DNA of 64,000 nt. It comes from an uncultured Alphaproteobacteria bacterium (GTDB lineage: Bacteria > Pseudomonadota > Alphaproteobacteria > RF32 > CAG-239). The stretch is from contig CALXTO010000001.1 in the NCBI GenBank assembly GCA_944391425.1, positions 11,066 to 75,065 of the forward strand. Direction: 5' to 3'. A model generated the notes under the pieces. That model saw nothing but the letters and a program-made list of their open reading frames with translations, did no database searches and was not told the origin of the DNA. Both the position numbers and the translations under genes were made by a program. Positions 1,894-37,806 of the stretch are shown here, piece after piece (within the stretch, counting starts at the first letter, position 1; every line of letters starts with the position of its first letter).

Positions 1894-1969
1894 GGGCGCT
1901 TAGCTCAGCTGGAAGAGCATCTCGTTTACACCGAGAGGGTCGGGAGTTCGAACCTCTCAGCGCCCACCA
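1894..1969 (+). tRNA. tRNA-Val (anticodon TAC)
   Basis: Hand-folded cloverleaf. Acceptor GGGCGCT/AGCGCCC, D stem GCTC/GAGC, anticodon stem TCTCG/CGAGA with loop TTTACAC, T arm GGGAG-TTCGAAC-CTCTC, encoded ACCA. Confidence 0.95.
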
Positions 1970-5072: not shown

Positions 5073-6251
5073 TCAGCTTAGGCTCAGGATAAAAGCGACC
5101 AGAATAAACAGCATTAGCGCTGTTCCGACGAGAATGACGGGAGCCGAGGAGTCCGTTTCACGGCGAAGTTTCCAATTGGCGGCAAAGATGCCGAGATAAC
5201 TAACCAGAAAAGCTGCACTGGAAAGATTGACAATGGATGAGAAGTCAAAAGCCAGCGTTGCCAGGATGATTAAGATTGTGGTAAACGCATTACCCAGAGT
5301 TCCATGCTCCCAAAATTTTCGGACATAAAAGTGTGGCAGTATTTTTTGCTGGCCTAAAGAATGTGAGATGCGGAAGACGCTGAAGAAAGTGGCGTTTATT
5401 CCGGTAATAAAGGCAAAAACGGCAGCGGCGTAAATCAGCCCGTATCCCCAGGTGCCGAGAATTTTTTCCGCTGCCGTGGCAACAGCCGTATCGGCATTGT
5501 CCAGCAAGCTGGCTGACGGCGTATAGTTGAGGACGACATAAGCCAAGAAAATGTATAATGCGGTGACAATGGCCAAGGTGGCAAAAATCGCCATTGTAAT
5601 TGTGCGTCCGGGGTTTTTAACATTGGCGGCGGCGTTAGTGATGACGCCGTAACCGGCGTAGGCGAAAAAAGTTATGCCGACCGCTTGGAGAAATTTCCAT
5701 TGGGAGGTGGCTATTTCCGGTGCAAACAGGCGCAAGCCGGGTTGGAAAAAAGCACCGATGATTAAAGCAATCAAAATTAACACTTTAATGAAAACAAGCA
5801 GCGTTTCCGAACGTCCGACATCGGCAGCGCCGAGCATATTGAGCAGGGAAAGGGCAGCTATGAGTATGCAGGCAAACGAGTTGATCCATAATTCCGACGG
5901 AGGTATCTGATCAAAAAATTCGGTTGCGTAAATTCCGAAGGATTTAGCCATCATGGAAATGGATATGGCAGAGGTGAGCATGTATATCAGAGAGAGGGTT
6001 CCGGATATCCAGTGATTGGGGAATGCCAGATGAAAATAATTGGTGAGACCTCCGGCAACCGGGTATTTGGCCGCGAGTTTGGCATAAGAGTAGCCTGAAA
6101 ACATGGCGGCAGCTCCGGCCAGGACGAAAGCATAGTAAGTTTGGTGCCCGGCCAGCAGGATGACTTGTCCGAGAAGGGCGAAAATTCCGGCGCCGACAAT
6201 CGAACCGATACCAAGGGAAATAACATTAAGTAAAGACATATTGTTTTGCAT
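5073..6251 (-). CDS. APC-family amino acid permease
   Basis: 392 aa polytopic membrane protein. N-terminal GIGSIVGAGIF motif typical of the APC superfamily. Confidence 0.85.
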   Translation of the reverse strand: MQNNMSLLNVISLGIGSIVGAGIFALLGQVILLAGHQTYYAFVLAGAAAMFSGYSYAKLAAKYPVAGGLTNYFHLAFPNHWISGTLSLIYMLTSAISISMMAKSFGIYATEFFDQIPPSELWINSFACILIAALSLLNMLGAADVGRSETLLVFIKVLILIALIIGAFFQPGLRLFAPEIATSQWKFLQAVGITFFAYAGYGVITNAAANVKNPGRTITMAIFATLAIVTALYIFLAYVVLNYTPSASLLDNADTAVATAAEKILGTWGYGLIYAAAVFAFITGINATFFSVFRISHSLGQQKILPHFYVRKFWEHGTLGNAFTTILIILATLAFDFSSIVNLSSAAFLVSYLGIFAANWKLRRETDSSAPVILVGTALMLFILVAFILSLS

Positions 6252-36387: not shown

Positions 36388-36483
36388 GTAATCCTCCTTC
36401 AGTTGATGATGCGGTAATTGTAAATCTTTCTTGATGTTTGGCAAGAAAAATATTTTTTGATGAAAAAAAGTTCAAAAAATTGT

Positions 36484-36512
36484 TGCAAAAATTTTTTAGT
36501 CGGTTTATATTC
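36484..36512 (+). promoter_or_regulatory. putative sigma70 promoter of tRNA-Lys
   Basis: TTGCAA (36484-36489), 17-nt spacer, TATATT (36507-36512). The tRNA starts at 36531. Confidence 0.5.
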
Positions 36513-36530
36513 CCGCTGTATTCGCTGATG

Positions 36531-36606
36531 GGTGCGTAGCTCAGTTGGTAGAGCAACTGACTCTTAATCAGTGGGTCTGGGGTTCGAACCCCCACGCGCC
36601 TACCAG
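36531..36606 (+). tRNA. tRNA-Lys (anticodon CTT)
   Basis: Hand-folded. Acceptor GGGTGCG/CGCGCCT, D stem GCTC/GAGC, anticodon stem ACTGA/TCAGT with loop CTCTTAA, T arm TGGGG-TTCGAAC-CCCCA, encoded ACCA. Confidence 0.95.
36591..36606 (+). repeat. direct repeat, left copy (last 16 nt of tRNA-Lys)
   Basis: CCCCACGCGCCTACCA recurs exactly at 36828-36843 (offset 237). Confidence 0.9.
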
Positions 36607-36615
36607 TTTATTGGA

Positions 36616-36652
36616 AAACCGGAATTTAAGCAATTCCGGTTTTTGTTTTTTA
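36616..36652 (+). terminator. Rho-independent terminator directly after intact tRNA-Lys
   Basis: CCGGAATT (36620-36627) / AATTCCGG (36633-36640) stem followed by TTTTTGTTTTTT. Confidence 0.7.
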
Positions 36653-36827
36653 TGGGGCGTGGATGGTTCTCACGTTCTTGCTCGTAGGCTCTGCTGCTGC
36701 AATCGCCAACTCGCTTCGGTCACTCAGTTTGTAACGTTTGCGGCGTCGGTAACCATCGACTGGCAAACGAACAAACTTTCGCCTGTCGTCAGAAAAAGCT
36801 TCACCGGAGCTTTTTCTTTCCTCCAGC
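36653..36827 (+). other. conserved structured tRNA-flanking element, copy B (candidate ncRNA or miniature integrative element)
   Basis: Collinear with 1998-2188 downstream of tRNA-Val. Shared blocks: GTTCTT..GCTCGTA; a 32-nt block 29/32 identical; a 25-nt block 23/25 identical; CCTCCAGCC. Inter-block distances are identical (57 and 55 nt). Two helices are supported by compensatory changes. No conserved ORF. Confidence 0.6.
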
Positions 36828-36843
36828 CCCACGCGCCTACCAT
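36828..36843 (+). repeat. direct repeat, right copy (partial tRNA-Lys 3' end, T-stem 3' strand to CCA)
   Basis: Exact 16-nt copy of 36591-36606, preceded by CCTCCAG instead of the T loop. It is not part of a foldable tRNA. Confidence 0.9.
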
Positions 36844-36845
36844 TA

Positions 36846-36873
36846 AAAAGCCTGCTTTTTTTGCAGGCTTTTA
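36846..36873. terminator. hairpin terminator after the partial tRNA-Lys copy
   Basis: AAAGCCTGC (36848-36856) / GCAGGCTTT (36864-36872) stem with a T7 loop. It also abuts the stop of the minus-strand GT2 gene. It is probably the ancestral tRNA-Lys terminator and acts bidirectionally. Confidence 0.6.
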
Positions 36874-37806
36874 TTTTGCTTTGAATGTGAATGTTTTATT
36901 GAATAGCTCCAATGTATATGTTTTGCTGCCCAGCAATTTAGTGCGGGATAAGCTGATGAAGTTTTTTATTTTGAAATAGTTTTTTGTTTTTTTCATGTGT
37001 TTGAGGATTTTTGCTTTATCACTGCTATGGCTAAGTTCATACATTAGAGTCTGCTTTTGCATTTGTTTCATCTTGTTCTTTTGATGAATAGTGTTGTTGC
37101 CGTGGATGCGATATGCAAACAGTATTTTGTCTAGATACTTGAATTTGCCGATTTTTGATAATTGCAGCATCATATAAAGGTCTTCCAACGGTGCTTCCGT
37201 TCTAAACACGAAGCGGTCAAGCGCCGTTTTGCGGATGCAGTAGCCGTTGGGAATGTAATTTCCCTTTAACAGAGAATAATAATCGCCAAAGTTTTTTCCG
37301 TTGAAATCAACGTCACGGCGGTGTTTTTTCCAGTATGAAGACACCGTTTTGTGTTCCGCTCCGTGATAAGGATGCAAATGCTGTCTGGCATCCCAGCCGG
37401 CAATTTTAGAAGCGGCGTCAATAATTTGATTGTCGCCGACAACTAAAACGTAATCTGGATTTTGTTCCAGAAAACCAACTTCTTCGGAGATGGCTTCCGG
37501 TTTGGCGATATCATCCGAAGCAATCATATAAATATATTTTCCCTCGGATTTTGCCAAAAGACGATTGATTGTCGTGCATAGCCCGGCGTTGGGCTGAGTT
37601 TCAAAGCTGAACTTTTGAAAACGTCGACAGCATAGCGGTTCCAGTTCTCTTATTTTTTGTGCAGTGCAATCGGAAGAGCCGTCATCTATAATGATCAGTT
37701 CTATATTATCATAAGTTTGATTTATAATAGAAAGTATCGTTTCGGCAACATATTTTTCGTGGTTATATGCTGCAATGATAACGGACACCAAACTATTTGT
37801 AGGCAT
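36871..37806 (-). CDS. family 2 glycosyltransferase
   Basis: 311 aa. [40 protein letters not shown] is a classic GT2 N-terminus with a DDG motif. Confidence 0.88.

Follow-up and report, generated by a model that had tools for sequence, protein, structure and literature searches.

The stretch of DNA considered here, hereafter the window, is 64,000 nucleotides of contig CALXTO010000001.1 (positions 11,066 to 75,065, forward strand) from an uncultured Alphaproteobacteria bacterium (assembly GCA_944391425.1). Our subject is a short insert that follows its tRNA-Lys gene. The tRNA-Lys(CTT) is intact and lies at 36530-36605 on the plus strand, as do all features at this locus unless stated otherwise; ARAGORN and Rfam agree on it. 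Its final 16 nt, CCCCACGCGCCTACCA (36590-36605, called X here), recur exactly at 36827-36842 (X'), with a period of 237. A sequence-only reading of the window had found this repeat and its period but placed both copies one base too high. It was right that the 16-mer is no generic repeat: there are two exact occurrences in the window where 0.01 would be expected by chance, and two or more were seen in 0 of 100 shuffles. The intact tRNA is followed by T1 (36614-36652), a terminator-like hairpin (36614-36644) with a T run. Beyond X' stands T1' (36846-36880), again a terminator-like hairpin (36846-36872) with a T run, and the two hairpins are distinct in sequence as had been claimed. T1' overlaps the stop of a convergent glycosyltransferase open reading frame (ORF; 36871-37806, minus strand). 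We tentatively read the insert as an old, partly decayed copy from a family of small units that belongs to the same class as the RtT repeats of E. coli and has no protein-coding capacity.

Between T1 and X' the insert can be followed piece by piece. First comes GGGGCGTGGATGGTTCTCAC (36654-36673), the remnant of a hairpin we call H1. It matches the antisense of tRNA-Lys positions ~54-71 imperfectly, at about 15 of 20 nt, across T loop, T stem and acceptor strand, and it complements the right junction CCTCCAGCCCC as well. Other copies have a sense arm in H1, which has been lost here. Next is the conserved core, TCTTGCTCG...CCTCCAGCC (36676-36828, ~153 nt), which scores 141 bits with R1, the covariance model of the family. 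It contains a variable hairpin that is weak in this copy (H2, 36687-36707), a near-invariant single-stranded block AACTCGCTTCGGTCACTC (36708-36725) and a conserved hairpin GTTTGTAACGTTTGC...GCAAACGAACAAAC (H3, 36727-36776) with compensatory changes across the family. GCCTG (36781-36785) then pairs with the terminal CAGCC (36824-36828), and this helix encloses H4 (36791-36818), a hairpin made of an A tract, a stem and a T tract in which 12 of 12 pairs covary. The right end of the core is CCTCCAG (36820-36826), directly 5' of X', and CC is invariably next. The sequence-only reading had put this 7-mer directly before the partial tRNA copy at both tRNA-Lys and tRNA-Val, and that is where it is seen. 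The Lys core is an orphan, with at most 74% identity to any other core, and the duplicated target segment is the bare 16 nt (likewise at locus L074). Since the sense arm is lost as well, the insert is best read as an old and decaying unit.

A homologous core lies behind tRNA-Val(TAC) (1894-1969, plus strand, as are the features that follow). Here X is the final 17 nt of the tRNA, CCTCTCAGCGCCCACCA (1953-1969). The H1 of unit 1 is GGTTCGAACTCCC-TC-GGGAGTTC (2010-2032); its first arm is antisense to tRNA positions 49-61 and its second is a sense copy of 49-56. The core of unit 1 (2034-2190) scores 137.5 bits, and its X' is CCTCTCAGCGCCCACCA again (2189-2205), preceded by CCTCCAG. A duplicated T1 (2209-2235), a duplicated H1 (2246-2268) and a second core (2270-2348), 3'-truncated near 2348, complete the array. 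The period of 236 had been recognized before and the unit is 236 bp, but it had gone unnoticed that all of it is in tandem: 17 nt of tRNA, terminator, hairpin and core, the second copy being truncated. Model R1 finds these three known copies in the window and no others. Two loci of the same species from other samples (L092 and L093) have one 236-nt Val unit fewer and keep only the truncated one. The recombinant pattern of single-nucleotide polymorphisms places the crossover within the core, not at the tRNA-derived 17-mer. Also in this species, the partial tRNA-Val end at L096 (215-262, plus strand) is lengthened by a further tandem duplication of 24 nt, with TCTCAGCGCCCACCAATTAAACC present twice; this duplication of X' is either slippage or an assembly artefact.

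The family was searched for with one exact 18-nt core pattern against a one-genome-per-species collection. The pattern matched 79 loci in ~33 species of metagenome-assembled genome (MAG). Three of them are chance matches (L025, L050, L078) and the remainder are real copies. Cores number at least 90 in total across these ~33 gut alphaproteobacterial species. Nearly all hosts are uncultured gut Alphaproteobacteria, 'Ca. Scatocola' among them, and the samples are Brazilian, Hadza, animal and chicken gut; the contig of the window was itself seen again in sample BRZ_AF. The CALYAY01 MAG has 17 pattern-matched loci, that is, at least 17 copies, and R1 also detects decayed distal copies in several arrays. 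The expectation that other tRNAs would carry the element is borne out. The same core adjoins at least 14 tRNA species, in either orientation, as well as palindromes like the repetitive extragenic palindromes (REP). The tRNA targets are Val, Lys (2 isoacceptors), Arg (2 or 3), Gly (2), Ala (2), His, Leu, Met and Pro.

Two identities for the core can be dropped. A known RNA family is one, as Rfam has no match to it at gathering thresholds or at E <= 10 (36480-36900 scanned). A phage origin is the other, as two core patterns gave 0 matches in a viral contig collection. It is also scarcely credible that a prophage or genomic island, since deleted, left these behind as att sites. That would yield a direct repeat of a tRNA 3' end, but ~90 sites share one ~150-nt core with constant boundaries, so the copy number and the boundaries already contradict it, and among the viral contigs no core pattern was matched.

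The units have a practical consequence for assembly. Contigs L085, L094, L095, L097 and L103 end inside or right beside units. Since several contigs stop within them, we conclude that the units break metagenome assemblies at tRNA loci, and at least one junction is chimeric. This is L070 (600-920, minus strand), where a core has a tRNA-Lys locus on its left and the 3' end of tRNA-Ala(CGC) with the Ala terminator on its right. Either two dispersed copies have recombined here, or the metagenome assembly formed a chimera at the repeat.

The core is a structured single-stranded nucleic acid and not a protein gene. We aligned 47 distinct cores. Pairing holds in 95.4% of the cells at paired positions, compared with 77% for column shuffles and 43-50% when the partners are slid. 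Changes on both sides are found at 19 pairs, H3 and H4 covary strongly, H2 belongs to the covarying fold too, and the helix of GCCTG with the terminal CAGCC goes jointly from G:C to T:A in 6 sequences. The Lys insert has no ORF except a non-conserved 60-aa minus-strand frame across the core (36650-36832). In the matching ENA contig a similar frame carries a gene annotation (L001: 5748-5867); the frame is non-coding. One can imagine that a conserved minus-strand frame, KRYKxSDRSELA, is a remnant of an integrase C-terminus, and this candidate was rejected. The frame is non-coding since its variable codon or dinucleotide covaries with a stem partner and since the loop lengths are not multiples of three. 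Nor is the core a group I or group II intron, as it has no Rfam match at E <= 10 and 150 nt are too small. It is not a miniature inverted-repeat transposable element either. The ends share only CTGG/CCAG (4 nt), and what is duplicated at the target ranges from 16 to ~100 nt and is absent at REP sites.

The plan of the sites was read from all copies printed in register, each compared with its neighbouring tRNA. Most copies are downstream of the tRNA and in the same orientation. The order at tRNA sites is T-arm antisense, short loop, left-side sense copy, core, and then CC with the remaining tRNA 3' end. The core starts with TCTrGCT and ends with CCTCCAG; CC always comes next, after which the target sequence resumes (for example at tRNA ~61-76). 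Left of TCTrGCT is a hairpin whose 3' arm repeats, in the sense direction, the 7-10 target nt just left of the junction and whose 5' arm is an antisense copy continuous across the junction. At Arg this hairpin reads GCGGGATTCGAACC-AA-GGTTCGA and at Gly(CCC) it reads GCGGCAACGGGAA-GA-TTCCCGG. Sense and antisense pieces were both found for Val, Arg, Lys, His, Ala, Gly and Leu, and the median antisense score is 12 for tRNAs that bear a core versus 8 for those without one. The join on the right is exact. At the left junction 2 or 3 target nt are lost (GAA, AT, TTA, TCA or GA), at times with one filler base. The place of the junction varies by target and may be the T loop, the boundary of T stem and acceptor, or the acceptor strand. 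It had been proposed that the element retargets by swapping its tRNA-derived end. The ends do vary by site, but it is three target pieces that change together: the antisense, the left sense and the right sense.

An intact tRNA with its own terminator stands just upstream, and the segment from junction to terminator is usually duplicated. This duplicated segment often ends with the terminator T run, and elsewhere it enters a second, truncated core. The sequence-only reading suggested that the second terminator is the ancestral one pushed away by the insertion. The Lys locus, with its bare 16-nt repeat, may fit that as an exception, and the double duty of T1' for the convergent gene favours its being the native terminator. 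At most loci, however, the second terminator is a duplicate of the first, often ending at the T run.

Another view is that the unit is a miniature integrative element of the cis-mobilizable (CIME) or mini-island type, placed by a tyrosine integrase acting in trans through a T-loop crossover. The 16-nt repeats would then be attL and attR and the second terminator the displaced native one. We consider this improbable. The terminators at Lys do differ, with the distal one also serving the convergent gene, tandem arrays fit repeated integration, and a repeat from T loop or T stem to CCA resembles the integration sites of the T-loop class. Yet the insert has no integrase gene, and the tRNA-derived repeat lies outside the common unit. 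The junctions range over T loop, T stem, acceptor stem and the 5' half on the opposite strand, and REP-like targets exist too. CCTCCAG followed by CC has no dyad-symmetric core site. The sole deletion variant crossed over within the core, and the loss of 2-3 target nt at the left junction is unlike conservative site-specific recombination.

Some sites differ in orientation or in the kind of target. Val(GAC/CAC) and Pro(GGG) genes have copies on the opposite strand at their 5' half. These are upstream of and divergent from the gene, and there the duplication spans the promoter region. Inverted copies are found downstream of tRNA-Met. In CALYAY01 and JAUNPO01 there are copies within one arm of REP-like palindromes, with the other arm in the role of the antisense. 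L007 (190-900) and other CALYAY01 loci have dense composite repeats that resemble REP or bacterial interspersed mosaic elements. The composite is a ~130-nt module, GGCTGATATTTGACCCC...GATCCCTTGACGTTCAG...GAAACCCTCCCCAGCC, followed by CCCTnnnnnnnnAGGGAGGG palindromes, which are the landing sites of the core. At L038 inverted cores lie on both sides of tRNA-Pro(GGG) (1951-2102 and 2342-2496, both minus strand), one of them strongly diverged (72 bits), and anticodon and T-stem pieces of tRNA-Pro, GCAAGAAGTCGGAG, are repeated beside each core. Two tRNA-Arg(ACG) genes adjacent to units (L010:5431-5507 and L021:3010-3086) have an A.C mismatch in the T stem (GTGAG / CCCGC). Replacement of the 3' strand by a copy of other origin would be expected to leave such a mismatch.

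Three further ideas about the plan were set aside. The antisense piece and X' do not form a general closing helix in the new family, as the piece pairs no better with its own X' than with a swapped one (means of 2.0 and 1.8 nt), though such a helix is part of the Rfam consensus for RtT. A general sense/antisense/sense triplication of tRNA 49-76 centred on the terminator would account neatly for the layout, but it was not adopted, on the strength of the count of 7 of 36 loci given below. Priming by mature tRNA, with a primer-binding site, was rejected since duplications usually pass CCA into the terminator and since there are non-tRNA and antisense targets.

There are several signs that the core has moved. 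In 4 same-genome pairs with different targets, similarity runs from TCTrGCT to CCTCCAGCC only, and the hairpin, spacer, terminator and tRNA pieces are specific to the locus. Within one genome identical cores are found at Val and Arg sites. Clusters of cores follow the genome in part and the target in part, with the antisense-Val copies of 4 or 5 MAGs grouping together. Such clustering is compatible with movement within genomes or with gene conversion among resident copies. Three cases point to insertion more directly. Unit 2 of L072 is unit 1 plus an inverted big core, with the same ends, replacing GGT. L007 has one filled REP-composite repeat beside two empty ones. Head-to-tail core dimers, in which CCTCC meets TCTTGCT with no tRNA-derived pieces between, occur at L020 (2833-3135, minus strand) and L057 (1-278, minus strand). 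The units of L072 are themselves of a third, unrelated core type, CCAAACGAAAGGCGGACATTGTACGCC...GGTGATGGCACATCAA (5846-5990, plus strand), set behind tRNA-Met in the same scaffold of antisense piece, sense piece and tRNA 3' end; the big core is inserted in the second of them. It must be noted that the Lactobacillales label of this contig may reflect wrong binning.

The main rival is a static family of RNAs kept uniform by gene conversion, and it explains the arrays and the E. coli RNA. The unit would be an RtT-like small RNA gene, read through from the tRNA promoter and trimmed by tRNA 3' processing, without transposition. Units would be born once per tRNA locus by local duplication of the 3' end, multiply by unequal crossing-over, and have their cores homogenized by gene conversion. 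The annotated rttR RNA of E. coli has 171 nt and covers exactly one unit. It is cited as experimentally shown and as the product of a single repeat unit in the tyrT operon (PMC3318445); its mode of action is still called unknown in a recent preprint (10.1101/2024.07.17.603846). The strong RNA-like covariation agrees with a static RNA, as does the fact that most copies are downstream of a tRNA and co-oriented. Arrays gain and lose units by homologous recombination, which would shift copy number without transposition, and some lineages such as the antisense-Val copies group by target across MAGs. We nevertheless think this account unlikely. It does not sit well with at least 17 near-identical cores at REP-like sites unlinked to tRNAs in one MAG, with the inverted copies behind tRNA-Met, or with the divergent upstream copies at Val and Pro. 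The inverted core in L072 was inserted into another type of unit. A strong intrinsic terminator precedes the unit and no internal promoter was found. It is implausible that point mutation produced matched antisense and sense pieces for at least 14 tRNAs.

With the reading we prefer, an old copy of an RtT-class unit, goes a proposed mechanism. The core may be copied into hairpin-forming DNA such as tRNA T arms and REP-like palindromes. Copying would go via a single-stranded intermediate, RNA or single-stranded DNA (ssDNA), supplied in trans together with an enzyme. The right end would be joined first and precisely, with the terminal CC as homology, and the left end would be sealed imprecisely by an error-prone step. 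Where a tRNA gene is hit, the only products to survive would be those in which local template switching or duplication has made the tRNA whole again, complete with a terminator or promoter. The unit may also be transcribed and processed like the E. coli rtT RNA. Candidates for the enzyme that fit best are a reverse transcriptase or an HUH Y1 transposase, since there is one exact and one sloppy junction and the structure is strand-biased: the minus strand has the lower minimum free energy in 43 of the 47 cores, and G.U (or G.T) pairs there outnumber A.C pairs by 52 to 15. Taken as a whole, with single-strand copying, right end first and selection of survivors, this mechanism is possible but doubtful.

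Several results weigh against our reading. The Rfam model for RtT, RF00391, has no match to the Lys core at E <= 10 (its threshold is 45 bits), and R1 has no match to the E. coli RtT locus (L091) or to L083. Kinship with RtT is therefore architectural, and homology of the cores is not demonstrable. The Lys and Val units were inspected for a sigma-70 promoter and none lies within them; since T1 also stands between tRNA and unit, expression of the unit is uncertain. Corrected for composition by shuffling, the z-scores of the two strands are -3.8 and -3.5 (p = 0.08, not significant), so an assignment to the minus strand from raw free energies is not upheld. Only 7 of 36 loci have a significant antisense copy that reaches the CCA end (last 17 nt), and the template-switch part of the model is thus weakly grounded. 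Clustering by genome could be the gene conversion of old, vertically inherited units. A Pfam screen of 93 ORFs near copies, which reports only families matched by at least 2 ORFs, named no enzyme. Lastly, no orthologous empty site was found for the Lys locus. The sequence-only reading had predicted one, and in relatives (L088-90, L099) tRNA-Lys(CTT) does lack the element, but these show no synteny with the window. The exact pattern of the predicted site gave 0 matches in JGI metagenomes, an uninformative result. Look-ups by neighbouring gene gave sites that were filled, empty and non-syntenic, or broken by contig ends.

It remains to compare the family with known systems. Integrative elements at tRNA sites (P4-like, with tyrosine integrases, at the T loop) and CIMEs have the same direct repeat of the tRNA 3' end from T loop or T stem, with the intact tRNA rebuilt on one side and a partial copy on the other. 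The flanking repeats at Lys are likewise identical to the tRNA 3' segment. The new units differ in being a ~220-nt insert, within which at Lys there is no tyrosine recombinase gene, and in having the repeat outside the common unit. They also lose 2-3 nt at junctions, carry an inverted copy of the target and have some targets that are not tRNAs.

The palindrome-associated transposable elements (PATEs) of IS200/IS605 and the REPINs, moved by HUH Y1 enzymes or RAYT, share other features. They are small and non-coding, have subterminal hairpins, make no target duplication, keep a short fixed motif at one end and associate with REP-like palindromes. A non-autonomous ssDNA transposon derivative of this kind would be a specific form of our explanation, to which we give small weight. 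H2 and H4 would be its subterminal hairpins, and the pairing of internal GCCTG with terminal CAGCC round H4 recalls the pairing of guide and cleavage site. The CC that invariably follows CAG (GG on the other strand) would be the fixed end, with no target-site duplication. Hairpin-forming targets, REP-like ones included, and the excess of G.U or G.T over A.C on the minus strand also agree. However, no Y1 or RAYT gene was identified, the genome being covered over 64 kb and the Pfam screen limited as above. The new units are conserved and structured over all 150 nt and not at the ends alone. Their imprecise left junction, with 2-3 nt lost and filler, is atypical of peel-and-paste transposition, and sense and antisense target pieces set them apart. 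The antisense copy derived from the target would be left unexplained.

IS110/IS1111 elements, which use a bridge RNA or seekRNA, likewise insert into REP-type hairpins, have a junction dinucleotide and are complementary to both strands of the target. A cargo-less derivative of them would account for the REP-like targets, the fixed dinucleotide and the nearby sense and antisense pieces, but it is very improbable. The pieces that match the target are not part of the mobile core, which does not vary with the target, identical cores being found at different ones. No DEDD recombinase gene lies beside any copy, no adjacent large ORF is common among the loci, and Rfam has no match to the core.

The junctions have further parallels. 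Target-primed insertion of the SINE type or dependent on LINEs (short and long interspersed nuclear elements, respectively) and the hybrid cDNAs of the Neurospora retroplasmid at tRNA genes also have one exact and one imprecise junction (with deletions or filler), short homology at the exact end and tRNA sequence carried along. The new family differs in that no reverse transcriptase is linked to it and no 5'-truncated copies were seen. We know of no target-primed SINE-like element in bacteria.

The closest relative is RtT (RF00391; rttR, tpr; the 178-bp repeats). The sequence-only reading knew of no precedent for so small an element, but these repeats, at E. coli tyrT, are published. They were first described in 1978 and are among the first sequenced bacterial repeats, and their origin has not been explained. 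On the tRNA strand, tyrT/tyrV reads tRNA-Tyr, spacer, GGGGAAGGAT, the stretch ...TTCGACC-AA-GGTTCGA, a ~70-nt core ending in GAGTAA, and TCCTTCCCCCACCACCA. Here GGGGAAGGAT is antisense to the T loop and the T-stem 3' strand of tRNA-Tyr. Three such units in tandem and a fourth between tyrT and tyrV make up four RF00391 matches of 133-137 bits, and in the RF00391 consensus the antisense piece pairs with the tRNA-derived 3' piece. RtT thus resembles the new family in lying directly downstream of a tRNA gene in tandem arrays, in ending with the last 17-19 nt of the tRNA from T loop to CCA, and in having an antisense copy of T loop and T stem, a loop and a sense GGTTCGA upstream of the core. An antisense T-arm segment able to pair is present in the Lys copy too, where it is degenerate. 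The differences are that the new core is unrelated in sequence and has ~153 nt with three hairpins versus ~70 nt, that a strong terminator separates tRNA and unit, and that the new family occurs beside at least 14 tRNAs, takes both orientations and also adjoins REP-like sites.

The two are also found in the same place. In MAGs with an AsmA-like neighbour protein at 85% and 65% identity to that of the window, one or two units of the RtT type follow tRNA-Lys(CTT). Such units stand at tRNA-Lys(CTT) in uncultured gut Alphaproteobacteria at L083 (2108-2250, minus strand) and L101 (888-1258, minus strand). They share 51 invariant columns with the E. coli RtT core (GGTGAGAAGC, GGTTCGACT, AGCGAAAGCGA, GAGTAA), although a scan of L083 with RF00391 gave no match at E <= 10. 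In sense arm and 3' piece, however, they match tRNA-Lys. RtT-type units have therefore been retargeted themselves, and one slot at tRNA-Lys is used by two unrelated cores.

The kind of element is thus known but unexplained, and the core family itself is a fresh variant of it. The literature searched held no description of this core family, of its spread over tRNAs and REP sites, of the slot shared with RtT or of the evidence for insertion. The design of antisense piece, sense piece, core and tRNA 3' end is a general one, found in distant bacteria, at many tRNAs and with at least two unrelated cores. What was an E. coli curiosity thereby becomes a class open to comparative study, and the design points to an unrecognized way of placing DNA at or into tRNA genes without destroying them. 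A bolder claim, and one that we hold with considerable doubt, is that RtT and the new family could be two branches of an unrecognized and widespread kind of hairpin-seeking miniature element, SINE-like or target-primed and retargetable to any tRNA. If true, it would also explain the tyrT repeats.

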